From: Bacteroidales bacterium
GTDB taxonomy: Bacteria > Bacteroidota > Bacteroidia > Bacteroidales > VadinHA17
Direction: 5' to 3'
DNA: 64,000 nucleotides
Assembly (NCBI GenBank): GCA_021163295.1
Contig: JAGGXD010000186.1
Span: forward strand, 5,802 to 69,801
The notes beneath the pieces were generated by a model. It was given only the letters and a program-made list of their open reading frames with translations. It made no database searches and was not told the origin of the DNA. Shown here one piece after another: positions 908 through 63,718 of this stretch. Within the stretch, counting starts at the first letter, position 1, and each line of letters starts with the position of its first letter. The translations under genes were made by a program, and so were the position numbers.

Positions 908-1024
908 TTGCTATTCGAAATTTTAAATTTCTTTCCATATTTCCACTCTTCTATTCTCCCCCTACTCCATCTATTCCATTCTTCCAAAATGTTCAAAGTT
1001 CAAAGTTAGCCGAATTCACGGGAA

Positions 1025-1058
1025 TAAAAAAAGCCCTAAACAGATCAGGGCTTTTTTG
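1025..1058 (-). terminator. Rho-independent terminator downstream of the 1077-1445 gene
   Basis: Stem AGCCCT (1032-1037) / AGGGCT (1047-1052), flanked by an A-run and a T-run. On the minus strand it reads hairpin followed by TTTTTTT. Confidence 0.6.
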
Positions 1059-1076
1059 AATAAGTTATAAACGGCA

Positions 1077-1445
1077 TTAATTATCAAATTCGTCTTTCTT
1101 AATTTCAGTCAACTTCAGCATATAGTTTGCGTAGGCATACGGATTAACCATTTTGTAACAATCATCATAAGCATCACCACTCACAAGCACTGTTTCTCCC
1201 TGCTCAAATGGTGTTAGCAAATGCATTACACTTCCGGCATCACAAATCTCAAAGGTTGAATAGATTTCACCAGGTTGAAATTGTGCATAACCGGTCTCTA
1301 CATTATAAAGTATAGTACCCTTGGTTTCTACAAGGGGAAAACGTACATCTCCATCACAACCACATTTAGGTTGTTTTTTACATCCGGGTTGTAAAGAAAA
1401 AACCAGAATACTAAATAAAAATATGAACTTATAAAACCTACGCAT
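1077..1445 (-). CDS. Hypothetical secreted/lipoprotein, Cys-rich N-terminus
   Basis: 122-aa ORF with ATG start. N-terminal signal peptide MRRFYKFIFLFSILVFSLQPGC followed by a CKKQPKCGCDGD motif. No family recognised. Confidence 0.5.
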   Translation of the reverse strand: MRRFYKFIFLFSILVFSLQPGCKKQPKCGCDGDVRFPLVETKGTILYNVETGYAQFQPGEIYSTFEICDAGSVMHLLTPFEQGETVLVSGDAYDDCYKMVNPYAYANYMLKLTEIKKDEFDN

Positions 1446-1474
1446 TGTATAAGTTATTCACTTTGAATGAATAT

Positions 1475-3280
1475 CTAAAAATTATATTTATTATCATCAA
1501 TCAGTTTATCTGCAATTCTTCTCCTGGCTTCTTTGGTATTCACACCACTTACTAAAGTGTAATAATTTGTTCCTTTAACCAGCATGTCTTTTATCTCCCC
1601 TTCAGCAAATGAATAAATTGCATCTTTTGCAAATTTACTAATTCTTCCTGAAGCATCGTAAATAAAAACGTCGATAATATCTTTATACACTTTTATTTGC
1701 TCTGCATCCTTAATATTCTCAAGTTTCTCGACACGGAGCAATGATGATTCAGAAACATAAAGAAGTATAATAATATCTGCAATATTATTCAGTATCTCCT
1801 GCTCGTACATCAGTTTCCGCTGGAATTTCTCAGAAGTTGCATGAATAAGAAACAGGGCAATTTTCCTGAAGTTTCCAATAATTCGTTTCTTTTCAGCATA
1901 AAAATCATCTTCAAGTTCAGGAGTGCCGGATAAACTTACCAGGTTTTTATATGCTTTTTCAGCTTCACCGAACAGGTCAAAATAACCTTTAGCACCTCTC
2001 TTCAAAACAGTATCAACAACCAGTATTTTATTTATCTCGTTCGTACCCTCAAATATCCTGTTTATTCGTGAGTCACGATATCCCCTGTCAACATCCAATT
2101 CAGCCGAATAACCCATCCCGCCATGTATCTGTACATTTTCATCAACTATATAATCAAGCGCTTCAGAACCAGCCACTTTAAGAATAGCTGCTTCAACAGC
2201 AAGTTGTGCATAAGCATCAATAGTAGCTTTTTCTTTAATCATCACTTCAAGGCTTTGCTCCACATATTGATCAACATTATAACTAGCTCTGTAAACAGCC
2301 GACTCAGTAGTAAAATTTTTGATGACCTGCTCTGCCAGTTTATGCTTAATTGACCCGAAAGAACCAATTAGCATTTTGAATTGTTTTCTTTCATTGGCAT
2401 ACTGAACTGATTGATTAATAGCATGTTTTGCAGCTCCCAGGACGTTCCCCCCAAGCTTTATCCGTCCCATATGAAGTATATTCAGTGCAATTCTGAATCC
2501 TTGTCCCCGATTTCCAAGAAGGTTTTCTACCGGCACTTTACAGTCATTAAAAAATAGTTGACGTGTTGATGAGCCTTTAATACCCATTTTTTTCTCTTCA
2601 GGATTAAATACGATACCCGGGAAATTACGTTCAACAATAAAAGCACTAAGCACACGGTCATTATCAATTTTTGCAAACACAGTAATAACATCAGCAAATC
2701 CCGAATTTGTTATCCACATTTTTTGTCCGTTCAGCAGGTAATGTTTACCATCATCTGACAATACTGCATTAGTTTTACCGGCATTTGCATCCGAACCGGC
2801 ATTAGGTTCAGTAAGAGCATAGGCTCCTTTCCATTCACCGGAAGCAAGCTTTGGAATATATTTTCCCTTTTGCTCGTCATTACCATAATATAAAATCGGC
2901 AATGTACCGATACCTGTATGGCATGAATAAGCAACGGCAAATGAATAAGCTGCACCCATTACATCACCTGCAAGCATCGAGGTTACAAAAGACTGCTCAA
3001 ACCCGTCATATTTTTCAGGAAGAGAGATGCCAAGAAGACCCAGTTCTCCTGCTTTTGTAAGGATTTCAGGCATCAATCCATCTTCCTGCTGATCAATCCT
3101 GTCAAGATTTGGAAAAACTTCAGTCTCCAGAAAATCACGGCAAGTTTGCGCAATCATATTTTGCTCTTCGTCAAACTCTTCAGGTATAAAAATATCCTTT
3201 GCTTCTGTTTCCTTAACAATAAATTCACCGCCTGTTATTTGTTTGCTTTTTTCCATAATTATTTTTTTCGGGTTTTGCAA
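1475..3280 (-). CDS. Acyl-CoA dehydrogenase (long, ~600 aa type)
   Basis: ACAD hallmarks: YALTEPNAGSD, GQKMWITN, IHGGMGY and EGTNEI, plus a C-terminal extension domain. The track start at 3280 is TTG. The ATG at 3256 (MEKSKQITGGEF) is the more likely start. Confidence 0.85.
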   Translation of the reverse strand: MQNPKKIIMEKSKQITGGEFIVKETEAKDIFIPEEFDEEQNMIAQTCRDFLETEVFPNLDRIDQQEDGLMPEILTKAGELGLLGISLPEKYDGFEQSFVTSMLAGDVMGAAYSFAVAYSCHTGIGTLPILYYGNDEQKGKYIPKLASGEWKGAYALTEPNAGSDANAGKTNAVLSDDGKHYLLNGQKMWITNSGFADVITVFAKIDNDRVLSAFIVERNFPGIVFNPEEKKMGIKGSSTRQLFFNDCKVPVENLLGNRGQGFRIALNILHMGRIKLGGNVLGAAKHAINQSVQYANERKQFKMLIGSFGSIKHKLAEQVIKNFTTESAVYRASYNVDQYVEQSLEVMIKEKATIDAYAQLAVEAAILKVAGSEALDYIVDENVQIHGGMGYSAELDVDRGYRDSRINRIFEGTNEINKILVVDTVLKRGAKGYFDLFGEAEKAYKNLVSLSGTPELEDDFYAEKKRIIGNFRKIALFLIHATSEKFQRKLMYEQEILNNIADIIILLYVSESSLLRVEKLENIKDAEQIKVYKDIIDVFIYDASGRISKFAKDAIYSFAEGEIKDMLVKGTNYYTLVSGVNTKEARRRIADKLIDDNKYNF

Positions 3281-3295
3281 ATTTTGTATTAAAGT

Positions 3296-5401: not shown

Positions 5402-5411
5402 GGAAAGGATA

Positions 5412-6380: not shown

Positions 6381-6452
6381 GATTTTTTTTATTGTTCAAT
6401 TTATTATTATCAATTTCTTCTGGTTAAATAATTATCAAACTGAAATACCTAC

Positions 6453-6546
6453 GGAATGTTGGAATATTGGAATGATGGAATATTGAATAAATAATTCAAA
6501 TATTCCTTTTTCATTTTTCCATTATTCCAGTCTTCCATTATTCCAG
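6453..6546. repeat. Inverted array of 8-nt words (GGAATNNN x4-5 / NNNATTCC x4-5) splitting etfB and etfA
   Basis: Left arm: GGAATGTT GGAATATT GGAATGAT GGAATATT GAATAAAT (6453-6492). Right arm: AATATTCC...ATTATTCC AGTCTTCC ATTATTCC (6499-6544). Central hairpin: GGAATATTGAAT (6477-6488) / ATTCAAATATTCC (6494-6506). Confidence 0.8.
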
Positions 6547-6549
6547 TTA

Positions 6550-7305
6550 TTATAACACCTTAGCTTCATTCTGTAAAAGGTCAAACAGTTCCTTTACATT
6601 TTCAGGATTAACTATTTTACATGGTGGTTTAGGTTGAGGGAGTTCAAAACTTTTATGACTTGTTAACACTTCAGTATCCGGGACTTCCACCACATTCAAA
6701 GGTTTCTTTCTAGCCATCATAATTCCACGCATAGCAGGAATCCTTGGTTCAATAGAAATTCCTTTCTGGACAATTGCAACAAATGGTGTATCAATGCTTA
6801 TAATTTCTTTTCCTCCATCAATAGTCCGTGATACAGACACTTTTTCCCCTTTTACTTCAATACCTGAAACTGAAGAAACAGAAGGCAGATTAAGAAACTC
6901 TGATAACATCCCACCAACAGCAGATCCGTTATAATCACATGATTCAATACCACACATTACAAAACCAATATCTTCATTTTTCAGCACACCCGCCAGCTTA
7001 GCAGCTACATCATATGCATCAGTTGGTTCAGCATTAATACGTATAGCATCATCCGCACCAATTGCCAGCGCTTTTCTTATTGTAGGTTCAGCACTTTTTG
7101 TTCCAACTGTAATAACGGTAACTTTTTCCACTGAGGAGCCCGAATCCTCTTTTAGTTCCATAGCCCTTGTCAGAGCGAGCTCATCCCATGGATTAATTAC
7201 CCACTGTACGCCGGTATTATCAAAAACAGAATTATTTTCTGTAAACTTAACTTTTGTGGTTGTATCAGGTACGTTCCCGAGGCAAACGAATACTCTCATA
7301 CTCAT
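6550..7305 (-). CDS. etfB: Electron transfer flavoprotein beta subunit
   Basis: 251 aa. N-terminus VCLGNVPDTTTKVKF and INPWDELALTRAMELKE are typical of EtfB. The start could be M1 or M3. Confidence 0.9.
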   Translation of the reverse strand: MSMRVFVCLGNVPDTTTKVKFTENNSVFDNTGVQWVINPWDELALTRAMELKEDSGSSVEKVTVITVGTKSAEPTIRKALAIGADDAIRINAEPTDAYDVAAKLAGVLKNEDIGFVMCGIESCDYNGSAVGGMLSEFLNLPSVSSVSGIEVKGEKVSVSRTIDGGKEIISIDTPFVAIVQKGISIEPRIPAMRGIMMARKKPLNVVEVPDTEVLTSHKSFELPQPKPPCKIVNPENVKELFDLLQNEAKVL

Positions 7306-12065: not shown

Positions 12066-15000
12066 CTAATCAAGACTCATACTGAGTCCAAGTCCTCTAA
12101 GTTCATGTAACAGAACATTAAGGGATTCAGGTATTCCCGGTGTAGGCATGGGTTCTCCTTTAACAATAGCTTCATACGACCGTGCTCTTCCAATAACATC
12201 ATCCGATTTCACTGTCAGGATTTCCTGAAGTATGTGTGATGCTCCGAAAGCCTCAAGAGCCCATACTTCCATCTCACCAAACCGCTGACCTCCGAATTGT
12301 GCTTTACCGCCAAGTGGTTGTTGTGTAATAAGTGAGTATGGTCCGATAGATCGTGCGTGCATTTTATCGTCAACCATATGTCCAAGTTTGAGCATATAGA
12401 TAATACCTACAGTAGCGGGCTGGGTAAATCGCTCGCCGGTACCTCCGTCGTACAAATAAGTTGTTCCATAATCAGGAAGACCTGCTTTTTTAGTATATTC
12501 AGATATTTGTTCTAAAGTTGCGCCATCAAATATTGGTGTTGAGAATTTTAATCCCAGACGTTGTCCTGCCCAACCCAAAACTGTTTCATATATCTGGCCA
12601 AGATTCATCCTTGATGGTACTCCCAGTGGGTTAAGTACAATATCCACAGGTGTTCCGTCTTCAAGGAAAGGCATATCTTCCTGCCGTACAATTTTGGCAA
12701 CAATACCCTTATTTCCATGACGTCCGGCCATTTTATCGCCAACCTTTATTTTCCGCTTCCTGGCCAGATAAACTTTAGCCATTTGAATAATACCGGTAGG
12801 AAGTTCATCCCCAATAGAAATATTGTATTTCTCTCTCCGGCGGATAGCTTCTATATCTTTATGCTTTGTAAGATAATTATGGACAAGAAGCTTAATAGTT
12901 TCATTTTTCTTCTTATCGGTAGTCCATTTATTCAGGTTAACATTGAGATAATTAATCTCCTGTAGTTGTTTAAGAGTAAATTTTGTACCCTTAGGAATAA
13001 GATCAACATTCAGGTTATCTTTAACCCCCTGAGAAGTTTTCCCATTTACAAGGATAAAAATTTTATCAACCAGTTTGGTGTCTAATTCTTCGAGTTCCTT
13101 TTGTAACCCGGCTTCTATCTTATCCAGTATTGGTTTTTCTGCAATTTTCGATCTTCTGTCCTTAACAGGACGTGAGAAAAGGTTTTTCTTAACTACCACT
13201 CCGTCGAGTGATGGTCCGGCTTTCAAAGAAGCATCTTTAACATCACCCGCTTTATCGCCGAAAATGGCACGAAGCAGTTTCTCTTCCGGAGAGGGATCGG
13301 ATTCACCTTTTGGTGTAATTTTTCCTATAAGAATATCCCCGGGTTTGATATGTGCACCAATACGAATCAACCCATGTTCATCCAAATCTTTAGTTGCCTC
13401 TTCACTAACATTAGGAATATCTGATGTAAGTTCTTCAAGACCTCTTTTTGTATCTCTAACTTCAAGAGAATGTTCTTCTATATGTATTGATGTAAAGATA
13501 TCATCACGTACTACACGATCAGATATCACGATAGCATCCTCGAAATTATATCCTTTCCATGGCATGAATGCCACTTTTAAATTTCTACCAAGTGCAAGTT
13601 CTCCATTTTCTGTACCAAAACCCTCAGTAAGAACCTGACCTTTCATAACCTTTTCGCCTTTTGAAACAATCGGGATAAGATTAATACAAGTATTCTGGTT
13701 TGTTTTTTTATACTTTGGAAGAACATATTTTTTCACATCATCATCGAAGCTAATAAACTTCTCAATATCACTTCGTGTATAGCGGACTACTATTTCGTTA
13801 GCATCAACATATTCAACAACACCGTCACTTTCTGCGACAATTAATATTCTTGAATCCTGGATCATTGTTTTTTCCAGGCCTGTACCAACAATAGGTGCTT
13901 CAGGATTAATAAGAGGCACTGCCTGTCTCATCATATTAGAACCCATAAGAGCTCTGTTTGCATCGTCATTCTCAAGAAATGGGATCAGGGAAGCAGCAAT
14001 TGAAGCAATCTGATTTGGAGCAACATCCATTAAGTCAACATTGCCTGCTTCCTCATGCGGAAAATCACCTTCGTAGCGTGCCTTAACCTTGGGGTTAACA
14101 AACATACCATTCTCGTTTATAGGTGCATTTGCCTGAGCAATTACCTTTTTTTCTTCTTCCTCAGCACTCAGGAAAACCACACCATTATCATTTAAATCCA
14201 CCTTCCCATCTTTAACATTTCTATAAGGTGTTTCAATAAAACCAAGTTTATTGATCTTGGCATAAACACACAGTGATGATATCAGTCCAATATTTGGTCC
14301 TTCGGGTGTTTCAATAGGGCAAAGTCTTCCATAGTGTGTATAGTGCACATCACGAACCTCGAATCCAGCTCTTTCCCGTGATAAACCACCTGGTCCAAGT
14401 GCTGACATTCTTCGTTTATGGGTCATTTCAGCCAGCGGATTAGTCTGATCCATAAATTGGGACAATTGGTTTGTTCCGAAAAAGGAATTAATAACTGAAG
14501 AGAGAGTCTTCGAATTAATCAGGTCAACAGGAGTAAAAACCTCATTATCGCGAACATTCATTCTTTCACGAATGGTTCTTGCCATACGGGCTAAACCTAC
14601 ACCAAACTGATTATGAAGTTGTTCGCCTACTGTTCTTACTCTACGATTACTTAAATGGTCAATATCATCAACATCTGTTTTTGAGTTTATAAGTTCTATC
14701 AGATACTTAATAATCTTAATAATATCTTCCATTGTAAGGACACTTGTATCCATAGGGATATCAAGACCCAGTTTCCTGTTTATTCTAAATCTTCCGACAT
14801 CTCCCAGATCGTAACGTTTGTCTGAGAAAAACAGATTTTCAATCACTTCGCGGGCAGTTCCTTCATCAGGTGGTTCAGAATTACGTAATTGACGGTAAAT
14901 ATGAACAACAGCTTCTTTCTCCGAGTTGCATGGATCTTTCTGTAGAGTATTAAAAATAATCTCAAAATCAGAGATATTTTTTTCTATATTATGAAGCAGG

Positions 15001-22147: not shown

Positions 22148-22213
22148 ATATGGGGGCCCCCCCAAATAAAATTAAATAAAGCCCGTCTATATAGTTAAGT
22201 AAAATTGATTTAA

Positions 22214-22278
22214 GAACAAGGAACACCGATTAACGATTTGCGAAGTGTTTGAAAATCTAAAATCGTTAATCCTTGTTC
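22214..22278. repeat. Long imperfect inverted repeat between rpsU and xerC-like gene
   Basis: GAACAAG (22214-22220) pairs with CTTGTTC (22272-22278). GATTAACGATTT (22228-22239) pairs with AAATCGTTAATC (22260-22271). The loop is 20 nt. Confidence 0.7.
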
Positions 22279-22363
22279 GATATTCAAAATGTCCTAATAT
22301 TATAACGTTATAGATAAGCACTAATTAAAAGCATTTAGTATACATTCCTGTAAGTGGATGTTG

Positions 22364-22555
22364 CTATTCTTCTTCTTCCTGAATCTTTTGTTTATATACT
22401 GCTTTCTTTATAACTTCACGCTTCTTCTTTGAAGGTTTTATATAGGCCTGCCTGTCCCTGAGTTCCCTTATTACTCCGGTTTTTTCAAATTTTCGTTTGA
22501 ATTTCTTCAGCGCTCTTTCAATATTTTCACCTTCTTTTACTGGAATTACAATCAT
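22364..22555 (-). CDS. rpsU: 30S ribosomal protein S21
   Basis: 63 aa. MIVIPVKEGENIERALKKFKRKFEKTGV...RQAYIKPS is a canonical S21. Confidence 0.9.
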   Translation of the reverse strand: MIVIPVKEGENIERALKKFKRKFEKTGVIRELRDRQAYIKPSKKKREVIKKAVYKQKIQEEEE

Positions 22556-22615: not shown

Positions 22616-22749
22616 CAGATTTCAAAAAAAAATAAATTTAAAAAATAATAGTACCTGAATAAAGAAGTGACTAAAGTTAAAACTCCTTCTCATTTACTCA
22701 CTAAATTTAATATTTTTTTAACTCTAAATCAAATAAAAAGAACAAAAAA

Positions 22750-23673
22750 TCAATTTGACTCCTTAATACTCACTACAAGGTACGGTTTGATCTTTGAAAA
22801 ATTTTCTTCAGGAATTATCCTGTTGTCTATTAATTCGTTAACATCTTTAATATTTCCCTGAATATCTCTGTAATTTAATATACCCTTAACTGTATAAACA
22901 TCCAGATAGGGGTGCCTGATTAATTTTGTATAAGCAGCACTATTAAGGTCAATTCTTGTTATTCCGTTTGTATCAATATTAACTGCCTGACTAATATTTT
23001 CAAATGTCTCGTACGATAATCCATACACTTCAAGCAGTTGTTCTTTCCTGACAAACCCCCCTAACAGGTTCCTGTATTTTAATATTCTTCCAGCTAAAAC
23101 CGGACCAATACCCCGTAAATCTGTAAGTAAAAGAGAGTCAGCTGAATTAAGCTCAATTAATGGCGCTTTTTTTTCATTGACTAATTTACGTGTACCGGTA
23201 TTTACATCCGTGGCATTAATTTCCCGAATCTTTATGTATGGCTCTGCCTGTTTATACCAATCCATTTTCAAACCGTATATCTTCTTAATATCTTCGGGTT
23301 TATAAAACCGACCGCCCTTCTTTAAATACTTTCTGATATTGTTTATTGTTTTTTCAGAAAGGCCTAGATGCTTCCACTTATCAACCGAAAGATCATTCGG
23401 ATCAAATTCAAAAAACTGAATATTATCCATGTTCTCAAATGTTTTCTCCCCGTTCTTTAAAGATAAAACATCATCTTCTGCACTACTGATCAATTGTTCA
23501 AATGCCTCAATCTCATTCTTGAAATCTGTAAAGTCGGTTGACCGGTTAACAATAATCTTTGGCATAATAAGATATCCTGCCAATACAAAGATTATAAGGA
23601 CAACCAATATCAGGGTTCCATTCTTTTCTGCTTTTGAGAAAGAAAAGTATTGATTCAGAAAATTGCGGATCAT
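22750..23673 (-). CDS. Helix-hairpin-helix (ComEA-like) DNA-binding protein with N-terminal membrane anchor
   Basis: 307 aa with one N-terminal TM helix. Two HhH units: ELNSADSLLLTDLRGIGPVLAGRILKYR and IDLNSAAYTKLIRHPYL. Confidence 0.6.
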   Translation of the reverse strand: MIRNFLNQYFSFSKAEKNGTLILVVLIIFVLAGYLIMPKIIVNRSTDFTDFKNEIEAFEQLISSAEDDVLSLKNGEKTFENMDNIQFFEFDPNDLSVDKWKHLGLSEKTINNIRKYLKKGGRFYKPEDIKKIYGLKMDWYKQAEPYIKIREINATDVNTGTRKLVNEKKAPLIELNSADSLLLTDLRGIGPVLAGRILKYRNLLGGFVRKEQLLEVYGLSYETFENISQAVNIDTNGITRIDLNSAAYTKLIRHPYLDVYTVKGILNYRDIQGNIKDVNELIDNRIIPEENFSKIKPYLVVSIKESN

Positions 23674-26802: not shown

Positions 26803-29148
26803 TTAAAATGGGTAACCAATTCCAAGATGCAGAGTAAAATCATCCTTAAAATTCACTCCCCCTTTAGTAATAACCCATTTATTACTATCATTAATAGAAG
26901 GATCCCTAAGCTTCATTCCCAAATCAAGGCGGAAAATGAAAAATGAGAAATCAAATCTTGCTCCAAATCCGGTACCTAATGCAATATCATTATAGAATTT
27001 ATCCCATTGGAAAACCGAACCCGGCCGTTCATCTTCCTGCCTTATTGCCCAGATATTCCCGGCATCAAGAAACAGGGCTCCTTCAAGTACCCAAAAAAGC
27101 TTAAACCTGTATTCAAGGTTTGTTTCAACTTTTATATCAGCAGTTTGATTGTAGAAAGCTACATTACCCGGATCATAGGAACCAGGACCAAGCTCTCTGA
27201 CATGCCAGGCACGAATACCGTTAGCCCCTCCACTAAAATATTGCTTTTCGAATGGTATGGCCTGCGAATTTCCATACGGATAACCAATACCCAAAAAAGC
27301 ACGAAACACAAGCTGATCCGTCTTATTAGTATAATAATGATACCGAAAATCAATATCGCTTTTAAGGTATTGTGCATATTCCAATCCCAAAATACTGTAG
27401 TTTTCATTATCAATTTTTTGATTTGAAATATTCAGTAAACCGGATAAGGAATTTCCTGCAGACTCTATGTTAAGGCGAAAGAATATAAAATCTGAATTCT
27501 TCTTAATATTTTGGTTATTGAAAATATAGCTATAATTCAGAGATGTGATCAATACATCTTTATAACTATATGCCAGATAAGTAGTAGTATCAATTCTTTG
27601 AGCAAACCCGGGATCAATAACCGGCAGCTTCACTGCATTAATTTCCAGAGGATTCACTATATGCGAAGAATATTTTGATGATTGCCAGTGATATCCAAAA
27701 GAAATATTTGCAATAGTCCTGGTAAAAACAGGCCTTTTCTGATAATTATATGCAAATGATAAAAAGGTTTCAGGGTTATACTTCTTAATAAATCTTTCGG
27801 CATCAAGGAAAGGGAAAAGAAATTTTGGAAAATTAATTCTTGCTTCAGTACCAAACTCAAGTGTATTTTGTAAAGTGCCTGATTTTTCAGTAAGTGTTTC
27901 AAATGCACCTTTCAATTTAAGATCAAGAACTTCGGATCCTTTAAACAAATTACGGTGCTTATATAATAAATTTACCGCTCCACCTAGATTTCCTGCCGAA
28001 TTCGTGCCTTCAAGCTCAATAGTATAAGACTGAAGAGTAATGGGTATCAATTGAATGTGACAATCCAACAAATAGTTTTCCTCTTGCTTCCCTGTTTTTT
28101 CAACCTCGTTGAAATTAATATTGATAGACCTGTAAACATCGAGTGAGGTTAAATGTAAACGGGTTTGTTCCACATTGGTCTGGTCGTAATACTGACCCTC
28201 TTTAATATAATTCGATTGAAGAATACGTTTTGGTTTAACCAGGAAATTACTATCTCTTCCCATTATATCAAATCCGTCATAATTGAAAGTATCAAGATCA
28301 TGATAATAGACATCCGGATCAGCAAGGGCCGATTGCGGATCAAAGCCGGGGTAAATAAAAACATTGTTTATTTTGTGTTTTCTATGAGGGACTTTCAGAG
28401 TCCGGTTTGAAGCAGTTTGAATACGAAACATTTTTATTACCAACGTCAGGTCAAGCTGGTGATCACCCACGGTGCTATCAGCCTGAAAAGAAATATTTTC
28501 TTTCGAAAAATTATAATATCCCTTGTTTCTAACCAGTCGTTCAATTCTTAACCTATCCTGCTGAAGAATATCAACATCATATTTTTGCCCTCTCCGGATG
28601 ACTGATGAAATTGTATCACCCTGAATAATTTTAGCAATTGCTGTATCTTCGATCTGATAATTTAATTTTCTGATTTTAAATGGAATACCTGAATGAACCT
28701 GAAAAATAACCCTCGCTTTTTTCTTTTTAGTAAAAACCGTATCATTCACAGTAGCATTAAAGTATCCCTTATGAACAAGGAAGGATTCAATATCCTTACC
28801 GGATTTAGCAGTTTGAAATTCATCGTATATCACAGGTTCTTCACCTATAGTACGTAACCATTTATGGGGCCATTTTTCTTTCTCCTGATTTGATAAATTA
28901 TACAGTCCCAAATGAAATCGGAAACCAAGGACCTTTTTATTAGGCTTTTGCTTTAGATAATATTTAAGCTCACTTTTACTAATACTTTTTGTTTTTTGAT
29001 CAAACTGAATAGAGTTTTTATCAAGAAGTATCTTATTCTCAGGTATGTATTTAGTCGGATTACATGATACAAAAACAATAAGTAACAACCCTATAATAAA
29101 CAGGTTATATAAAACTGAAATATTTTTATTTGATCGACGAATTCTCAA
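26803..29148 (-). CDS. Omp85 (BamA/TamA) family outer-membrane protein
   Basis: 781 aa with a signal peptide and POTRA-like N-terminal half. The C-terminal beta-barrel has aromatic-rich alternating strands and ends HLGIGYPF. TTG start with no upstream ATG. Confidence 0.75.
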   Translation of the reverse strand: MRIRRSNKNISVLYNLFIIGLLLIVFVSCNPTKYIPENKILLDKNSIQFDQKTKSISKSELKYYLKQKPNKKVLGFRFHLGLYNLSNQEKEKWPHKWLRTIGEEPVIYDEFQTAKSGKDIESFLVHKGYFNATVNDTVFTKKKKARVIFQVHSGIPFKIRKLNYQIEDTAIAKIIQGDTISSVIRRGQKYDVDILQQDRLRIERLVRNKGYYNFSKENISFQADSTVGDHQLDLTLVIKMFRIQTASNRTLKVPHRKHKINNVFIYPGFDPQSALADPDVYYHDLDTFNYDGFDIMGRDSNFLVKPKRILQSNYIKEGQYYDQTNVEQTRLHLTSLDVYRSININFNEVEKTGKQEENYLLDCHIQLIPITLQSYTIELEGTNSAGNLGGAVNLLYKHRNLFKGSEVLDLKLKGAFETLTEKSGTLQNTLEFGTEARINFPKFLFPFLDAERFIKKYNPETFLSFAYNYQKRPVFTRTIANISFGYHWQSSKYSSHIVNPLEINAVKLPVIDPGFAQRIDTTTYLAYSYKDVLITSLNYSYIFNNQNIKKNSDFIFFRLNIESAGNSLSGLLNISNQKIDNENYSILGLEYAQYLKSDIDFRYHYYTNKTDQLVFRAFLGIGYPYGNSQAIPFEKQYFSGGANGIRAWHVRELGPGSYDPGNVAFYNQTADIKVETNLEYRFKLFWVLEGALFLDAGNIWAIRQEDERPGSVFQWDKFYNDIALGTGFGARFDFSFFIFRLDLGMKLRDPSINDSNKWVITKGGVNFKDDFTLHLGIGYPF

Positions 29149-29280
29149 AACTTGTAGTTAACGTTCTTCTTTCCGAAGACAAATATAATTATTATGAACT
29201 ACTATTTTTTGTTACTTTGCATTACCGGGTTAATATTTGAAATTTGGATTATCCGGGAATATTAATCTGATATAATCATA

Positions 29281-30773: not shown

Positions 30774-30787
30774 ATTTGTATAAAAGT

Positions 30788-30822
30788 GTTACGAGTTTCG
30801 GGTTACGGGTTACGAGTTCACT
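30788..30822. repeat. Heptad word array GTTACGA GTTTCGG GTTACGG GTTACGA GTTCACT
   Basis: Exact 7-nt periodicity read from the sequence. Related copies lie at 47755-47804 and 63691-63718. Confidence 0.85.
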
Positions 30823-30867
30823 TTAGCCACTTCTTAATTAAACTAAATATAGTCTGGAATATTTTGT

Positions 30868-31593: not shown

Positions 31594-31756
31594 TTCGTTT
31601 TTGAAAAAATAAATAGCCGATCAGTAAATAAAGTTCAAATATAATAAAAGGGAATTAATCAGTATGCAATCGAAAGTTGGCAGTTGGCAAAAAAGAAATA
31701 AAAATGTTTTCGCTTCACCTTTTTTTCTAATTTTACGCTGATAAAACGCATCAAAT

Positions 31757-33725: not shown

Positions 33726-33800
33726 TAGGTAAGTAGGTAAGTAAGGCGAGTGATTAGCAGGCATTAACCATTGGGTGCTGGGTACTGGGTACTTGCGATT
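33726..33800. repeat. Word arrays TAGGTAAG TAGGTAAG TAAGGCGAG ... GGGTGCT GGGTACT GGGTACT
   Basis: Read directly from the sequence. The array begins 3 nt after the stop of the Ldh_2 gene. Confidence 0.8.
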
Positions 33801-33825
33801 AAACAAATTAACGAAATACAAACAA

Positions 33826-41354: not shown

Positions 41355-41480
41355 ATGAAAAAACTAGCAATAATATTTGCCGCCTGCATGGTATTAGGTG
41401 TAATTCTAAGTTCCTGTAACAAGGAAGTATGCCCTGCATACAGTAATATTGATACTCAGCAGACTGAAGAAACTGCGTAG
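41355..41480 (+). CDS. Small putative lipoprotein (41 aa), below ORF-track cutoff
   Basis: Own translation: MKKLAIIFAACMVLGVILSSCNKEVCPAYSNIDTQQTEETA. It has a signal peptide with lipobox-like LSSC. Located between a BNR protein and an OM protein gene. Confidence 0.35.
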   Translation: MKKLAIIFAACMVLGVILSSCNKEVCPAYSNIDTQQTEETA

Positions 41481-43472: not shown

Positions 43473-43491
43473 TTTATTTGAATAACTATTT

Positions 43492-43530
43492 AAAAAAAAG
43501 ACCTGAAATCAATTTCAGGTCTTTTTTTTA
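43492..43530. terminator. Bidirectional Rho-independent terminator between convergent gap and DUF1987 genes
   Basis: An A8 run, then stem GACCTGAA / TTCAGGTC (43500-43521), then a T8 run. Confidence 0.75.
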
Positions 43531-43944: not shown

Positions 43945-44003
43945 ATTCACTCATCTCTTCATTCGCTCATTTACGCATTTACTCATTCTATCATTTCTTC
44001 ATT
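43945..44003. repeat. Octad word array TTCACTCA TCTCTTCA TTCGCTCA TTTACGCA TTTACTCA TTCTATCA TTTCTTCA
   Basis: Exact 8-nt period. The array starts in the stop codon of the ABC permease gene (43999-44001). It shares TTACGCATTT and ATTTCTTCATTC with 63626-63688. Confidence 0.85.
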
Positions 44004-45240
44004 CATAATGCAATGCTTTTATCGGATCAAGTTTAGAAGCCTTAACTGCCGGTATATATCCACTAACTAATCCAACAATAAAACATGCCGCAACCCCGCT
44101 AAAAATCCATATCCATGGAACAACAAAAGATGATTTGAGAAGAACTGACATAAGATTACCAACAAGCAGACCCAGAATAATCCCAACAACCCCGCCCATC
44201 TGACCAATTAATATTGCTTCAAATAAGAATTGTTGCTTGATCATTTGTGCCTTTGCTCCGATAGCTTTTCTAATACCTATCTCCTTTGTTCTTTCAGTAA
44301 CAGAAACAAGCATTATATTCATCAATCCAACCGTAGCCCCAAGTAGAGTTATCAACCCAATAATAGATGCAGCTACACTTACTTTCCCCATACTTTCAAT
44401 CAGAATTTTTACCAGATTGTCACTTTGAGTAATGTTAAAATCACTCTCATCCCTGGCGGTGAGGCCCCTAACTACCCTGAAAGCCCCCTCTGCTTCACTA
44501 ACCATAACATCCAAAAGTTTTGGATCATCGGGCAGGACATTTATCTTGAATGACATCCTGGGACGCGAAAAATATTGCCGAACATTGGTTACCGGTAAAA
44601 TACACAACCTTTCATCCCCAAAAATACTTGAACCCTGGGTTTCAAGTACTCCAATTATTCTATACTTACCGTTTCCTACTGAAATAACTTTATTTAACGG
44701 ATTTTCAGAATCTTTAAAAAGATCATTAACAATTTCAGAGCCAACAATGACAAAGTTTCTATTTGTCTCAATTTCCGAAGAAGAAAAATTCCTTCCTCTT
44801 GATAATTTCTTGCCTGAAACCCTCAAATAATTCTCATCACTGCCCAGAACCTGGATATTTGGATTTGTTTTTTCAGATTTGTGTTTTACTGTAGCCATAC
44901 CTGAAGCATATATTGAAATTGAAACTGCACCGGGAAAAATAAAATCATCCTTAAACTTTTTTGCTTCCTGATACGAAATGTAAGGGTGATTCTTTTTCCT
45001 GTAACGCTTGTCACCTACCTGGATATTCATTGACCTGCTCTCAATTGTAAAGGAATTTGCACCAAGCATTGTAAATTGTTGTGTTATTGAATTCTTGATA
45101 GAATCAATAGCTGTAAGTATCCCCACCAGGGCCATTATTCCAAAGGCAATAATTAAAATAGTCAATATAGTCCGTACCTTGTTTGTCTTTACCGATTGAA
45201 TTGATACCCTGAGGTTTTCTCTGAATAAACCTATTTTCAT
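43999..45240 (-). CDS. ABC transporter permease, FtsX/MacB-like
   Basis: 413 aa. N-terminal TM helix, a large periplasmic domain, and a C-terminal FtsX-type 3-TM bundle ([14 protein letters not shown]). Confidence 0.8.
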
Positions 45241-47694: not shown

Positions 47695-47804
47695 AAGTGA
47701 AGAAGAGAATAACGAATAGCGATTAACGAATATCGAATAATGAAGTAATGAAGTGTTGCGGGTTACGGGTTACGTGTTACGAGTTAGTGTGTGAGTGGTT
47801 GAAT
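47695..47804. repeat. Composite word array: AACGAAT AGCGATT AACGAAT ATCGAAT AATGAAGT AATGAAGT, then GTTGCGG GTTACGG GTTACGT GTTACGA GTTAGTG
   Basis: Read directly. It starts 7 nt after the acn stop. The second half belongs to the GTTACGR family seen at 30788 and 63691. Confidence 0.85.
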
Positions 47805-47871
47805 TTTGCAGCATATCTTCCTATTAACCAAACCAATAACAAATTAATTTAAAAATAACTAAGCTTTTAGT

Positions 47872-47897
47872 TGTATAACTAAATATTTAGTTATACA
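47872..47897. promoter_or_regulatory. Perfect 26-bp palindrome, putative BlaI-family operator
   Basis: TGTATAACTAAAT|ATTTAGTTATACA was verified base by base. A second dyad AACTAA-GCTT-TTAGTT lies at 47857-47872. The palindrome overlaps a TAnnTTTG-like TACATTTG (47894-47901), 5 nt before the blaI ATG. Confidence 0.55.
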
Positions 47898-47905: not shown

Positions 47906-48283
47906 ATGAAAGAACTTACAAAAGCCGAAGAACAAATTATGCAGATATTATGGGAGCTTGACGAAGCTTTCGTAAAAGAGATTATCGATAAACTTCCTAA
48001 CCCCAAACCGGCGTACAATACAGTTTCAACCATTGTACGAATTCTTGAGAAAAAGGGGTTCGTTGCTCATACCGCATTCGGTAAATCACACAGGTATCAT
48101 CCTCTTGTAAAAAAAGAGGACTATACCAAAGTGCATATGAAAAGTTTTGTGAATAACTATTTCAGTAATTCTTTTGAGAATATGGTCTCTTTCTTCGCTA
48201 AAGAACAAAGTATTAGTGTAAATGAAATGGAAGAGATCATGAAGATCATGGAAAAAGAGATCCAAAAGCAGAAAGGAGATTGA
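47906..48283 (+). CDS. BlaI/MecI/CopY-family transcriptional repressor
   Basis: 125 aa. The winged-helix N-terminus LTKAEEQIMQILWELDEAFVKEIIDKL...YNTVSTIVRILEKKGFV is typical of the family. Confidence 0.85.
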   Translation: MKELTKAEEQIMQILWELDEAFVKEIIDKLPNPKPAYNTVSTIVRILEKKGFVAHTAFGKSHRYHPLVKKEDYTKVHMKSFVNNYFSNSFENMVSFFAKEQSISVNEMEEIMKIMEKEIQKQKGD

Positions 48284-48286
48284 AAT

Positions 48287-49999
48287 ATGAATGAATTTGG
48301 TATTTTTCTATATGAATCAGGCATAAGCCTGTCGGTATTATATATCTTTTACTGGTTCCTGTTAAGAAAAGAGACCTATTTCTCCCTGAACCGGATCATT
48401 CTGGTTTCCACGCTGTTACTTGCCCTGATAATACCGTTTATCCGGATCACTATTACAGGTCATGCTGAAAAGGGTTCAATAGTATATGTTTTTAACCGCT
48501 TTATTATGGATCCGTTGGTGGTTAGCCCGGAAACGGTACATGCTGAAAAAATTCAAAGCATTAGCCTGATCCAGATCATCTATTTCATATATTTTTCAGG
48601 AGTGATCTTTTTTTCCCTGAAGTTTTTTGTGCAGTTCTTCCAGATATTCAAATTGTTGAAGAAGTACGGCACCAGGAAATTACACGGTTACAAAATTGTA
48701 CCGATTGATAATAATCTCTCCCCTTTCTCATTTTTCAACTTTATTTTCATTAATCCCGAAAAGATACAGGAAAATGAACTGAAGAATGTACTGTATCATG
48801 AAGGAGAACATGCCAGGAGACTTCACACCCTGGATATAATTCTGCTTGAGACAATTTGTATTATCCAGTGGTTTAACCCATTTATCTGGTTTTACAAACT
48901 GGCACTCCGTGAAATACATGAATACGAAGCTGATTTAAGAGTTATAAAGAACGGGGAAAACAAACTGAACTACCAACAACTAATTTTACAACAGGTTTTT
49001 GGCAACCAGTTCTTTCAGGTAGTTCATCATCTGTTAACCAATTCATTAACTAAAAAACGAATAACCATGATGACAAAAATTGAATCAAAAAAAAGAACGA
49101 TAATCAAATCATTATTCGTTCTGCCAATAGCAGCTATACTGGTAATGACATTCTCCTTTACACGAGGGACGGAACCCAATGATTTATTAGATAATTCCGT
49201 TGATAAAGAGATGAATAATACGCAACCAATTACCACACAAGATCAGGATACAACTATACCTGAACAAATTTTCTTTATAGTTGAAGAGATGCCAAGTTTT
49301 CAGGAAAAAGGACTTAACGGTTTTAGAGATTGGGTTATGAAGCAGTTGAAATATCCTGAAATTGCTGCAAAAAAAGGTATTGAAGGTGTTGTTTATATCC
49401 AATTCGTAGTGAATAAACAGGGTAATGTAACAACTACAACAATTCTGAGAGGAGCAGATACGCTTCTCGATGCAGAAGCTCTCCGGGTTGTTAAATCCAG
49501 TCCGCAATGGATGCCCGGAAAACAAAGGGGACAGGAGGTAAATGTTGCCTTCACTTTCCCGGTTAAGTTTGCTCTTCAGGAACCGGAAAAAACCGAACCG
49601 GAGAAAAAAGTTATCCCTGTGGAGAAAATAAAACAGGAAAAACCTGTTGTGAAGGAAGAAATACCTGAAGGAGAAATTTTTTTTATTGTCGAAGATATGC
49701 CCATATTCCCTCACGATTCACTTGAGAGCATGGATGCATTTCGGAATTATGTTATGTATAATTTAAGCTACCCGGAGGAAGCTGCAAAAAAAGGTATTAA
49801 TGGCAAAGTGTTTGTTCAGTTTGTTGTAGACAAGAATGGAGATGTAAAAAATGTTGAAATAGAGAAAGGAGCAGACCCCCTGCTAAATGCAGAAGCCATC
49901 AGGGTTGTTAAATCCAGTCCGCGATGGATACCCGGGAAACAAAGGGGACAAGTGGTGAATGTTGCTTTCACTTTCCCAATAATGTTTGTACTGCAATAG
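48287..49999 (+). CDS. BlaR1-like M56 peptidase fused to two tandem TonB C-terminal domains
   Basis: 570 aa. The N-terminal TM domain carries an HEXXH motif (YHEGEHARRLH). Two TonB_C units end ...LRVVKSSPQWMPGKQRGQEVNVAFTFPVKFALQ and ...IRVVKSSPRWIPGKQRGQVVNVAFTFPIMFVLQ. The gene starts 4 nt after blaI. Confidence 0.8.
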   Translation: MNEFGIFLYESGISLSVLYIFYWFLLRKETYFSLNRIILVSTLLLALIIPFIRITITGHAEKGSIVYVFNRFIMDPLVVSPETVHAEKIQSISLIQIIYFIYFSGVIFFSLKFFVQFFQIFKLLKKYGTRKLHGYKIVPIDNNLSPFSFFNFIFINPEKIQENELKNVLYHEGEHARRLHTLDIILLETICIIQWFNPFIWFYKLALREIHEYEADLRVIKNGENKLNYQQLILQQVFGNQFFQVVHHLLTNSLTKKRITMMTKIESKKRTIIKSLFVLPIAAILVMTFSFTRGTEPNDLLDNSVDKEMNNTQPITTQDQDTTIPEQIFFIVEEMPSFQEKGLNGFRDWVMKQLKYPEIAAKKGIEGVVYIQFVVNKQGNVTTTTILRGADTLLDAEALRVVKSSPQWMPGKQRGQEVNVAFTFPVKFALQEPEKTEPEKKVIPVEKIKQEKPVVKEEIPEGEIFFIVEDMPIFPHDSLESMDAFRNYVMYNLSYPEEAAKKGINGKVFVQFVVDKNGDVKNVEIEKGADPLLNAEAIRVVKSSPRWIPGKQRGQVVNVAFTFPIMFVLQ

Positions 50000-52122: not shown

Positions 52123-52215
52123 TCGCAAAGTCGCTAAGCCGCAAAGAATAAGGAAAATAATACTATTAATATTGAAATTCGTGCATTCGTGGCTTCTTAT
52201 ACTTTCGGAGTAGAC
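52123..52215. repeat. Octad word arrays TCGCAAAG TCGCTAAG CCGCAAAG ... ATTCGTGC ATTCGTGG CTTCTTAT ACTTTCGG (partly inverted)
   Basis: Read directly. Left (52123-52146) and right (52187-52209) arms are partially complementary: AAGCC/GGCTT and CAAAGT/ACTTTC. Confidence 0.7.
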
Positions 52216-56712: not shown

Positions 56713-56743
56713 TTTGCAGTATGAATAAAAGTTACTAATTTTG
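56713..56743 (+). promoter_or_regulatory. Canonical Bacteroidota promoter of the SRP RNA gene
   Basis: TTTG (56713-56716), a 19-nt spacer, then TAATTTTG (56736-56743). It ends 4 nt before the predicted 5' end of the SRP RNA helix. Confidence 0.55.
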
Positions 56744-56747
56744 TACC

Positions 56748-56844
56748 GGGTAAGTCTTATACGGCCAGCTCCTGCTGAACTCCCCCAGGACCGGAAGGTA
56801 GCAAGGGTAAGTGGTTGTAGCGGTGCGATATAAGTAGCTTACCC
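56748..56844 (+). ncRNA. ffs: Signal recognition particle RNA (small/4.5S type)
   Basis: Conserved domain IV core CCCAGGACCGGAAGGTAGCAAGGGTAAG with a GGAA tetraloop. The terminal helix is GGGTAAG...CTTACCC. Followed by a T-run. Ends are +/- a few nt. Confidence 0.8.
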
Positions 56845-56863
56845 ACTTTTTTTGGAGTAAAAA

Positions 56864-56891
56864 GTTGAAAGTTGAAAGTTGAAAGTTAAGC
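56864..56891. repeat. Heptad array GTTGAAA x3 + GTTAAGC
   Basis: Exact tandem copies are read directly. TGA occurs at 56866, 56873 and 56880, which covers all three frames. Confidence 0.9.
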
Positions 56892-59001: not shown

Positions 59002-59013
59002 TATATAGTTATA

Positions 59014-62577: not shown

Positions 62578-62585
62578 TCAGACTG

Positions 62586-62613
62586 GTTACTTGTTGCTGG
62601 TTACTGGTTACTT
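62586..62613. repeat. Heptad array GTTACTT GTTGCTG GTTACTG GTTACTT spanning the def stop codon and the def-comEC spacer
   Basis: Read directly. On the coding (minus) strand it reads AAGTAAC CAGTAAC CAGCAAC AAGTAAC. The first TAA is the def stop. Confidence 0.85.
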
Positions 62614-63180
62614 ACTTCTTACCCTCTTCCCTGGAAGAACTGTTTTATAATCAACATCGAATTTCCCTTTTGAAATTCCATTTAGTTTATTTTTCAAAAG
62701 GCGTTTTTTTAAAGAAGCCAGATGATCAGTAAATAAAATACCATCCAGGTGATCATATTCATGCTGGATAATTCTTGAAAGTATTCCGTCATACCATTCA
62801 TCATAAAAATTAAAATCCCCATCATAGTATGATATCCTTATCTTTGATTCCCGTGATACATCTTCCCTGATTCCGGGAATACTAAGGCATCCTTCATTAA
62901 AAGGAGTAATCTCACCGATTCTTTCAATAATCGATGGATTGATAAATACTTTCTTAAAATCCTTAAGTAAAGGATCTTCATCCTTAAGGGTGGAAGTATC
63001 GACAATAAATAACCGAACAGATTTGCCCACTTGTGGAGATGCCAGTCCAATTCCGTCAGAATCATCCATTGTCTCAAACATATCGGCTATAAATTGTTTC
63101 AGATCCTTGTAATCCTTATCAATAATACCCGTTACTTTTCTTAATACCGGGTGTCCATATACATATATTGGAAAAACCAT
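62608..63180 (-). CDS. def: Peptide deformylase
   Basis: GIGLASPQVG, EGCLSIPG and QHEYDHLDG motifs are present. Start set at the ATG at 63180 (MVFPIYVYGHPVLRK). The longer track ORF overlaps ruvX. Confidence 0.9.
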   Translation of the reverse strand: MVFPIYVYGHPVLRKVTGIIDKDYKDLKQFIADMFETMDDSDGIGLASPQVGKSVRLFIVDTSTLKDEDPLLKDFKKVFINPSIIERIGEITPFNEGCLSIPGIREDVSRESKIRISYYDGDFNFYDEWYDGILSRIIQHEYDHLDGILFTDHLASLKKRLLKNKLNGISKGKFDVDYKTVLPGKRVRSK

Positions 63181-63184
63181 AATT

Positions 63185-63607
63185 TTAAGTGTTAGCAGCT
63201 TTTTGGTCAAGAAATGACTGCAGGATAATTGCTGCAGATATCTTGTCAACATTTGCTTTATCTCTGCGTTTTTGTTTTTTCATACCACCTAAAACCATCG
63301 CCTGCACAGCCATTTTGGAAGTAAACCGTTCATCAACCAGGAAAACCGGAATATCTGAATATTTCTTTTCAAGATATCTTACAAAGGGATTTATATATCT
63401 CACTGCTTCAGATGGTTCATTATTCATCTGGCGTGGATAACCGATAACAAACCCCTCAATATCTTCATCTGCCATATATGATTCAATAAATGAATGCAGA
63501 TCGTTTGTTAAAACTGTAGTAAACGGACTGGCAATTGTTTTTGTTGGGTCACATACAGCTAAACCGGTTCTTTTTTCCCCATAATCTATTCCTAAATACC
63601 TTCCCAA
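63185..63607 (-). CDS. ruvX: Putative pre-16S rRNA nuclease / Holliday junction resolvase-like YqgF
   Basis: 140 aa. YLGIDYGEKRTGLAV, VIGYP and DERFTS are YqgF signatures. TTG start. Confidence 0.85.
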   Translation of the reverse strand: MGRYLGIDYGEKRTGLAVCDPTKTIASPFTTVLTNDLHSFIESYMADEDIEGFVIGYPRQMNNEPSEAVRYINPFVRYLEKKYSDIPVFLVDERFTSKMAVQAMVLGGMKKQKRRDKANVDKISAAIILQSFLDQKAANT

Positions 63608-63625
63608 ACCATAGATTTATATTAT

Positions 63626-63718
63626 TACTCAATTAATTCATTTGTAACTACTCACCTTACGCATTTCTTATTTCTTCATTCTTTCAAAATGTTACGAGTT
63701 TCGGGTTATGAGTTCATT
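63626..63718. repeat. Composite word array: octads (TACTCAAT TAATTCAT...TACGCATT TCTTATTT CTTCATTC) followed by heptads GTTACGA GTTTCGG GTTATGA GTTCATT
   Basis: Read directly. The octad part is related to 43945-44003 and the heptad part to 30788-30822. Confidence 0.85.

Follow-up and report, generated by a model that had tools for sequence, protein, structure and literature searches.

Heptanucleotides are the most abundant class of long simple sequence repeats (LSSRs) in many prokaryotes, and the footprint of the polymerase is offered as the explanation of the 7-nt preference (Mrazek et al. 2007, as cited in PMC4679880 and PMC4692102). The intergenic heptamers of Xanthomonas and Nostoc (GGGAATC; GGGGAYT) occupy the same gene pairs in close relatives, where their length and sequence differ widely (Rehm et al. 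2015, PMC4692102), and inverted pairs occur among those of Xanthomonas (PMC4692102). In cyanobacteria, the short tandemly repeated repetitive (STRR) sequences are 7-bp repeats of unknown function that can form hairpins between co-transcribed genes, as between hupS and hupL (PMC2670836). TAACTGA repeats are found in five Bacteroidetes as well as in Beggiatoaceae and cyanobacteria, and ‘other heptamer direct repeats’ lie in the intergenic DNA of Gramella, Aequorivita and Elizabethkingia (MacGregor 2015, PMC4679880). Here, we describe tandem arrays of 7- or 8-nt words dispersed through the spacers of a 64,000-nt stretch, the window, from a Bacteroidales metagenome-assembled genome (MAG; contig JAGGXD010000186.1, positions 5,802 to 69,801). 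The arrays have the defining features of this known, poorly understood class of intergenic heptameric repeats, and they are probably fast-turnover products of slippage.

The window has a G+C content of about 37% and carries the rpoB-rpoC region, tuf with a tRNA cluster, a small Bacteroidales-type signal recognition particle (SRP) RNA and housekeeping genes. A preliminary description of it listed 14 array loci and considered all-frame translational stop pads, binding arrays, termination-entry sites and neutral slippage products as possible explanations. Arrays were called uniformly with Tandem Repeats Finder (TRF) in a pooled set consisting of the window and 80 aconitase-region loci of related Bacteroidota (81 loci, 1.4 Mb, with 142 kb of spacers), and dinucleotide shuffles served as controls. 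In the species-representative collection, Bacteroidota MAGs with an aconitase 91-95% identical to that of the window come closest, followed by a tier at ~75%. Related loci are denoted by L numbers.

Period-specific arrays confined to intergenic DNA

Periodicity was assessed at lags 2-20 in the 37 window spacers that are 30 nt or longer (5,088 nt). The share of matching positions rises to 0.328 at lag 7 (z 3.8) and 0.340 at lag 8 (z 5.2), compared with 0.306 in the shuffles, in keeping with the word lengths given in the preliminary description, while every other lag in this range stays at z <=2.1. The coding DNA of the window displays the 3-nt codon period alone, with no excess at lags 7 and 8. 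Across the 142 kb of pooled spacers, 60 arrays of period 7 and 23 of period 8 are called, against 1.0 and 1.9 in the shuffles, accompanied by 13 arrays of period 9 (2.7 in shuffles) and 14 of period 11 (2.5 in shuffles). Periods 4-6 show no excess (2 arrays against 1.2), a range in which the TRF filter is weak for the shortest units. Per 100 kb, arrays of period 7 number 36.7 in spacers but 0.25 in genes, a difference of about 150-fold, and those of period 8 number 15.7 and 0.42, respectively.

Heptamers are the commonest units over the 81 loci, and the nine strongest arrays of the window comprise five octamer and four heptamer arrays. Altogether, arrays occupy 557 of the 4,936 intergenic nt of the window (11%). 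The trait is patchy, with most arrays concentrated in 12 loci and none at all in 46 of the 81. At array-rich loci, the density per kb is 2.64 in co-directional, 2.07 in divergent and 2.29 in convergent spacers; the placement of all arrays between co-directional genes, as first described, is not quite accurate even in the window, where the run at 31676 lies in a divergent spacer and the array at 56864 follows the SRP RNA gene. Unit sequences are degenerate: the mean is ~1.1 mismatches per unit and few arrays are perfect (for example, 56861-56887 and L021 6647-6734), whereas strict SSR definitions ask for perfect or near-perfect identity of the units. Four arrays contain two-unit higher-order repeats. 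Orientation and placement were evaluated on the 68 arrays located in co-directional spacers. No significant sense bias is detected in GC skew (p 0.76), AT skew (p 0.20) or purine content (p 0.17), the mean sense GC skew being +0.03 with 35 arrays positive and 31 negative, and strand concordance within loci, which would indicate a replication-strand effect, is not significant either. The arrays are real, period-specific, confined to intergenic DNA and indifferent to spacer type and strand, and the phenomenon is not limited to the window but extends to other Bacteroidota.

The closest resemblance is to the LSSRs, heptameric SSRs with units of 5-11 nt. Both consist of head-to-tail units in which heptamers dominate, are restricted to intergenic DNA with a patchy phylogeny, differ in length and sequence among close relatives at one and the same spacer, and include occasional inverted pairs able to form stem-loops. 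The marks of that class, namely an excess of 5-11-nt units, confinement to non-coding DNA, an abundance of heptamers (81 loci) and spacer variation in relatives, are all found here. The differences lie in the many unrelated word families per genome in place of one dominant word, in the degeneracy of the units, in the parity of octamers and heptamers in the window lineage, in words that are neither G-rich nor quadruplex-forming, and in a pile-up at stop codons. The STRRs belong to another phylum, occurring in heterocystous cyanobacteria, but share the 7-bp tandem units in intergenic or intercistronic DNA, and their hupS-hupL hairpin parallels a hairpin between etfB and etfA in this Bacteroidales MAG. 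They are reportedly defined on a few specific heptamers (CCCCAGT, TTGGTCA and CAACAGT). Neither these words nor GGGAATC or GGGGATT are present as tandem copies in the window. Tandem TTGGTCA/GACCAAT is present only in another Bacteroidales MAG, L041, as many GACCAAT arrays (for example, 548-610, 2097-2130, 7086-7132 and 13425-13468), which read on the other strand as TTGGTCA, reportedly the cyanobacterial STRR2 heptamer.

The TAACTGA repeats are likewise intergenic heptamer arrays of two to tens of copies with close relatives lacking repeats at the same spacers, but those of Beggiatoaceae have a fixed orientation and lie immediately upstream of start codons, whereas the arrays here are unoriented and favour the stop side; tandem TAACTGA is absent from the 81 loci. 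With heptameric SSRs or LSSRs, STRRs and TAACTGA repeats on record (PMC4679880, PMC4692102, PMC2670836), the initial remark of knowing no described repeat class with this architecture does not stand. The hairpin at 6453-6548 recalls repetitive extragenic palindromes (REPs) and bacterial interspersed mosaic elements (BIMEs) in its position as an intercistronic operon hairpin. REPs of Enterobacteria are a conserved ~35-nt palindrome, present in hundreds of copies and mobilised by REP-associated tyrosine transposases (RAYTs), whereas 6453-6548 is a single-copy pair of inverted octamer arrays that is missing from relatives with 93-95% EtfA identity. A REP/BIME assignment is rejected, as the two significant folds of the window are unrelated and no repeated palindrome family is seen. 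Clustered regularly interspaced short palindromic repeats (CRISPR), with repeats of 23-50 nt set apart by unique spacers of comparable length, are rejected as well, the units here measuring 7-8 nt and abutting directly.

Array turnover among close relatives

L002 is syntenic with the window from 38 to 57 kb and provides the basis for an identity comparison, in which genes are 89.8%, non-array spacers 83-85% and arrays 58-62% identical. Octamers of the same family follow the permease stop in ~7.6 copies in the window, ~8 in L001, ~14 in L002 and ~4 in L003. After the acn stop, xTGAxGTx octamers number 2, 4 and 7 among genomes (2-7 in L001-L004), and in the same spacer of L001-L004 a hairpin of CGCAAAG words replaces the AACGAAT and GTTACGG arrays. 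After miaA, CGCAAAG words give way to CAGTCNG heptamers in L002; after the SRP RNA gene, the GTTGAAA array of the window contrasts with a degenerate GTTACGG GTTTTAA GTTAAAG run in L002. An array-bearing spacer of 100 nt in L002 occupies a site where the genes overlap in the window.

Around etfBA, relatives ranked by EtfA identity form a graded series for two spacers, that between etfB and etfA and that before the haloacid dehalogenase (HAD) hydrolase gene:

Window, EtfA 100%: etfB-etfA spacer of 169 nt with the 94-nt array hairpin; GGAA array before the HAD gene
L084, EtfA 97%: etfB-etfA spacer as in the window; array before the HAD gene inverted (TTCCA, 6 copies)
L085, EtfA 95%: etfB-etfA spacer of 66 nt, array-free; array before the HAD gene expanded
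L086, EtfA 93%: etfB-etfA spacer of 63 nt, array-free; mini-hairpin before the HAD gene
L087, EtfA 92%: etfB-etfA spacer of 87 nt with one arm (ATTCC, 3 copies); no array before the HAD gene
L088, EtfA 88%: etfB-etfA spacer of 81 nt, array-free; no array before the HAD gene, with an unrelated insertion of ~230 nt

The terminator after gene 1077-1445 is kept in all six relatives, while the array directly downstream of it varies or is absent. In the DUF3467-etfB spacer of L087 (6087-6166), a fresh 14-nt tandem duplication of local sequence is present as 2.5 copies of AATAACGTTATTAAT, and the other relatives hold a single copy; this is an array birth event. Gain, loss, expansion and inversion are rapid, taking place among relatives whose flanking proteins are 92-97% identical, and the graded series is what one would expect of repeats that arise locally and turn over fast, free of sequence-specific constraint. 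Conservation of orthologous spacers, raised in the preliminary description, holds for position and word family at two spacers, with altered copy number; at the other spacers the arrays are replaced or absent.

Several further elements were noticed in these comparisons. Insertions that are not in the window lie at L001 3790-4286 and L002 19383-19636; they share GATTTTGCGAGGAG...GAAGCAATCT and inverted ...CGCAAAATCC ends, giving them the look of a transposable element of the miniature inverted-repeat type (MITE), and the L001 insertion is flanked by inverted CAGTCNG heptamer arrays. Next to the acn arrays, a 20-nt unit in about two copies at 47855-47892 on the plus strand, partly palindromic (ATAACTAAnnnTTTAGTTGT), stands upstream of a BlaI-type repressor gene (47906-48283), which is followed by a BlaR1/TonB_C protein gene (48287-49999). 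This repeat is near-invariant in L002, L004, L006 and L013 while the adjacent arrays change, and for that reason it is probably the operator of the repressor. A 41-aa open reading frame (ORF) at 41355-41480 on the plus strand, located in a 238-nt ‘spacer’ after the second gene of TonB-dependent-receptor size, has a lipoprotein-like signal (MKKLAIIFAACMVLGVILSSCNK...) and is kept in L002.

Array loci and their words

TRF recovers about ten of the 14 originally listed loci as true arrays. The remaining four fail: 22214-22278 is a hairpin without tandem structure, 31676-31689 consists of two copies, and the runs at 22683-22706 and 52123-52146 are below TRF detection. The genes named in that listing, def, the MacB/FtsX permease, Ldh_2 and acn, are correctly identified. 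The loci are as follows:

930-1007: degenerate period-8 TTCCA/GGAA array at 930-986, then 2.4 copies of GTTCAAA at 991-1007 (period 7; TRF), flanked by a canonical terminator (~1012-1051, minus strand) on one side and the HAD hydrolase gene start on the other; RNA fold ordinary (z 0.2)
6453-6489 and 6495-6548: two inverted period-8 arrays, 4.8 copies of GGAATATT and 7 of TTCCATTT, in the etfB-etfA intercistronic spacer (TRF); jointly a hairpin of ~94 nt (fold of 6440-6549 at -36.4 kcal/mol, z -6.35)
22214-22278, minus strand: plain hairpin (fold -24 kcal/mol, z -5.2), ~85 nt downstream of rpsU and not called by TRF
22683-22706: weak run of AATGAGxx-like words, seen by sequence, following the stop of gene 22750-23673 (minus strand)
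30788-30818: 4.4 copies of GTTACGA, period 7, between the ubiE-like and outer membrane protein (OMP) genes (TRF); unstructured (z 0.77)
31676-31689: two copies of GTTGGCA in a divergent spacer (TRF score 30), near chance at this copy number
32521-32649: the entire spacer from the short-chain dehydrogenase/reductase (SDR) gene stop to the Ldh_2 start, with AAAGT-type words followed by ~11 copies of ATAACTTT/ACTTTTT at 32561-32648, partly mutually inverted (TRF periods 7, 8 and 15); fold of the spacer modest (z -2.1)
33726-33743 and 33772-33793: 2.2 copies of TAGGTAAG directly after the Ldh_2 stop, then 3.1 copies of TGGGTAC (TRF)
43945-44005: 7.6 octamers of ATTCACTC, reading TGANNNAA in the gene sense (TRF), the first unit including the MacB/FtsX permease stop codon; unstructured
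47695-47786: after the acn stop, abutting arrays of GAATAAC/AACGAAT (5.4 copies), TAATGAAG (2.1) and GTTACGG (4.6) (TRF, three arrays in 47707-47786)
52123-52146: TCGCAAAG TCGCTAAG CCGCAAAG after the miaA stop, seen by sequence
56861-56887: 3.9 perfect copies of AAAGTTG/GTTGAAA, period 7 (TRF, 100% matches), starting 13 nt beyond the SRP RNA gene (56741-56848, plus strand; 109.7 bits) on its 3' side
62582-62612: 4.4 copies of ACTGGTT, period 7 (TRF), reading as TAACCAG units from the def stop TAA in the gene sense and taking up the whole 30-nt def-comEC spacer
63663-63734: upstream of ruvX, ATTTCTT (3 copies), GTTACGA (3.4) and CATTTAAG (2.5) (TRF)

Two of these loci also bear on gene annotation. 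The apparent 584-nt spacer that holds the hairpin at 22214-22278 contains an unlisted rpsU gene (22364-22555, minus strand; ribosomal protein S21, 63 aa, Pfam E 2e-19). A mechanical GTG ORF (33775-34401, plus strand) begins inside the TGGGTAC array, and the gene called in the identical contig L081 starts ~100 nt downstream.

Seven direct arrays fold like their shuffles (z 0.2 to 1.2). Among the tested arrays and loci, the significant folds are 6440-6549 and 22205-22285 only, which are unrelated to each other in sequence. An Rfam scan of the window returns the SRP RNA and five tRNAs only, with no RNA family overlapping any array. Consensus scans of the window yield mostly noise in coding DNA, both for terminators, whose candidate sites number slightly more than in shuffles, and for promoters, for which the model is ill-suited to Bacteroidota.

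The words are diverse. Expectation-maximisation over all rotations and both strands finds no clear shared motif: heptamers reach 4.66 bits (4.18 +/- 0.23 at random) and octamers 5.93 bits (4.97 +/- 0.36), an excess of only ~2 sd that stems partly from orthologous arrays. The recurrence of word families noted in the preliminary description is real for GTTNNNN; in general, with either strand and any rotation permitted, it is close to chance, and word matches between loci are approximately at the chance level (~2% per orientation). The pattern GTTN4GTTN4GTT has 13 matches at six window loci, all intergenic, where 0.71 are expected, and this superfamily is present in many Bacteroidota. Two of its members, the unlinked GTTACG arrays at 30788-30818 and 63691-63714, have an identical 19-nt stretch, GTTACGAGTTTCGGGTTA. 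The flanks of the six arrays show no alignment beyond the arrays and no mobile-element ends, so that a MITE assignment, which calls for defined terminal inverted repeats, a target-site duplication and multiple near-identical copies, is rejected. Different spacers have 208 10-mers in common, a marginal excess over the Markov control (171 +/- 21).

In the six window arrays with three GTTN4 units (at 991, 30788, 47755, 56864, 62586 and 63691), GTT falls on the plus strand in every case, regardless of gene orientation; this bias is not reproduced in other genomes, where both strands are used, and may be due to chance (p ~0.03). Gene orientation and GC skew change sign at 29000-32000, and the search for DnaA boxes (26 in the window, 23 expected, no cluster near this region) gives no evidence for a replication origin. 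In L012, a small gene is enclosed by TGGTGGAG octamers and their exact reverse complement CACCACTC (1-116 and 603-633), 552 nt apart.

Origin of the arrays and competing explanations

The arrays are probably fast-turnover slippage repeats, the Bacteroidales counterpart of the intergenic heptameric SSRs represented by LSSRs and STRRs. Their formation would start with the tandem duplication of a 7-8-nt stretch in unconstrained non-coding DNA, when replication slips or the template is misaligned. Units would then be gained and lost, changing the array length while point changes accumulate, and occasional inverted copying would generate long hairpins. Selection would purge coding DNA of arrays, neither 7 nor 8 being a multiple of 3. 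The nucleotides just past a stop codon would be under the least constraint within a spacer, whose start-proximal part holds the promoter and the 5' leader, and duplication of a unit spanning the stop would be harmless, whereas duplication of a unit a few bases upstream would shift the frame. Stop rotation, hairpins and changes of spacer length are therefore by-products and not the cause of the arrays. We infer slippage as the generator, the polymerase footprint as the cause of the 7-8-nt preference, and near-neutrality. Of the explanations put forward in the preliminary description, it is neutral slippage that is favoured, through the fast turnover of the arrays, their equal density in all spacer types and the lack of strand bias.

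Several observations weigh against this explanation. Roughly 1.1 mismatches per unit without a gradient is not what simple recent slippage predicts: adjacent units, compared with distant ones in search of this signature, show no greater similarity. No copy-number polymorphism is found in the contigs L081-L083, which at 99.9-100% identity are too close to be informative. The 19-nt identity between unlinked loci and the GTTN4 superfamily suggest inter-locus copying or favoured words. Non-functional DNA tends to be lost from bacterial genomes, so an intergenic share of 11% needs a high birth rate or some benefit, and the 7-8-nt preference is left unexplained. The stop codons supply the remaining points. 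Arrays starting from -10 to +5 nt of the upstream stop amount to 27 of the 68 co-directional arrays, where uniform placement gives 13.0 (P < 5e-5), and the 11 on the start side are in line with expectation; within these 27 the stop density is 0.133 in the sense and 0.053 in the antisense strand (p 5e-4), and 18 of them hit all three frames.

These stop-abutting arrays also speak for all-frame stop pads, in which stop-bearing 7- or 8-nt units are selected at gene ends and three copies cover the frames, catching read-through or frameshifted ribosomes. The counts first reported are exact, with 11 stops in 61 nt from the permease stop, 8 in 37 nt from the Ldh_2 stop and 10 in 70 nt from the acn stop, in three frames each. 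The accompanying estimate of a twofold density agrees with the ratio of 1.8-2.8x to the expectation from intergenic composition; against shuffles of the same segments the ratio is only 1.2-1.8x. These examples are selected; over 13 of the 14 loci, leaving out 31676-31689 with its undefined sense strand, the sense stop density is 0.098, compared with 0.085 in non-array spacer. Ordinary AT-rich spacer is itself stop-dense (0.082-0.085, about one stop per 12 codons in each frame). Array strands lying downstream of a stop tend to be richer in stops (convergent 0.091, co-directional sense 0.096) than the others (divergent 0.058, co-directional antisense 0.074). However, the first unit contains the stop codon in 20 of the 27 abutting arrays, as in TGANNNAA (permease), TAACCAG (def) and TGAxGTGA (acn, L002), and the sense enrichment is thus largely by construction: once a unit contains a stop, a period of 7 or 8 makes it recur and rotate through the frames automatically. 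The 41 non-abutting arrays lack a sense bias and even trend in reverse (sense 0.072, antisense 0.089), the difference over all 68 is not significant (p 0.12), and 15 of the 68 have a stop-free sense strand, with words such as CCCAACA in L008 and GGCACTC in L019. Divergent spacers are as dense in arrays, one array follows the SRP RNA gene, and relatives lack arrays at the same genes. Stop pads would also predict periods 4, 5, 10 and 11, and periods 4-5 are without excess, although the TRF filter has low power there. Tandem or backup stops and the ‘ambush’ hypothesis hold that extra or off-frame stops limit the cost of read-through and frameshifts; the arrays have that idea in common, but those proposals concern single codons or codon choice, and here most of the enrichment comes from the stop within the unit. 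Stop pads as the origin of the arrays are quite unlikely. For the subset starting at a stop codon, the twofold excess and the sense richness are compatible with selection, which is inseparable from construction here, most of these arrays having the stop codon within them; that they are a selected all-frame termination pad, or overlapping ATGA start/stop mini-frames (AATGANNN octamers, permease and acn), is no easier to credit. If so, 7- or 8-nt duplication of the stop codon with its 3' context would be favoured in this lineage, since it would limit read-through and frameshift products or uncouple the translation of neighbouring genes. On the simplest reading, selection for stop pads is unnecessary to explain the stop association.

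A role in binding, of the kind proposed by MacGregor for the TAACTGA repeats (PMC4679880), would make the arrays multivalent RNA or single-stranded DNA sites for a protein with a footprint of ~7 nt (such as cold-shock domain proteins or ribosomal protein S1) in post-transcriptional control or translational coupling. The fixed 7-8-nt register with partly conserved cores, the unstructured RNA of the seven direct arrays, the filling of intercistronic spacers such as def-comEC and SDR-Ldh_2 and the precedent proposals (PMC4679880, PMC2670836) are compatible with it. The words are too diverse for a single sequence-specific factor, have no consensus and stand in both orientations to transcription, only 13 of the 68 arrays lie within 10 nt of a start codon, and arrays, which evolve faster than the adjoining spacer, are missing or inverted in close relatives whose neighbouring genes are unchanged; this role is unlikely. 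That small mobile elements (MITE-like or SDR-like) spread the word families between loci, leaving the arrays as their footprints or parts, is very unlikely. It is suggested by the 19-mer shared between unlinked loci, the GTTN4 arrays at six loci, the recurrence of CGCAAAG and CAGTCNG families at different spacers in relatives and the inverted CAGTCNG arrays flanking the L001 insertion, but similarity stops at the array edges without common ends, shared 10-mers are only marginally above the Markov control, word matches between loci are near chance, and arrays are seen arising from local sequence in L087. Contingency loci, in which the number of units tunes promoter spacing or leader length and leads to phase variation, have a precedent in the heptamer SSRs of Haemophilus (PMC12721329), and copy number does vary between relatives; with housekeeping neighbours (acn, etf, def, the SRP RNA gene and miaA), a large number of arrays at 3' ends or in convergent spacers, a degeneracy of units that stabilises repeats, and near-identical contigs without variation, they are highly improbable here. 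The replacement of intrinsic terminators by transcription termination or Rho-entry elements is the least probable of all. Many arrays lie at gene 3' ends, direct arrays are unstructured as Rho entry demands, and the window has only slightly more consensus terminator-like sites than its shuffles, but canonical terminators exist in the genome (for example, 43491-43530), and the one after 1077-1445 is conserved and separate from the array at 930-1007, which varies. Divergent spacers are equally rich in arrays, and arrays are present inside likely operons (etfB-etfA, def-comEC). Direct arrays fold no better than shuffles, unlike the G+C-rich stem-loop with a U tract of an intrinsic terminator, and the mean GC skew of +0.03 differs from the C-rich, G-poor, unstructured sense RNA of a rut site. 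On present evidence, the arrays reveal no new translation or transcription termination signal.

In conclusion, intergenic heptamer arrays, said to be on record since 1990 (STRR) and 2007 (LSSR), have no accepted function, and their 7-nt preference has no accepted explanation. New here are the very high array density of some uncultured Bacteroidales (~11% of intergenic DNA), the many word families and the strong octamer component. The arrays lengthen spacers, create operon hairpins and can mislead the calling of gene starts, as with the GTG ORF at 33775-34401, as well as motif discovery. The graded relatives catch birth, expansion, inversion and loss at single spacers, which makes this lineage well suited as a natural data set on the mutational mechanism.

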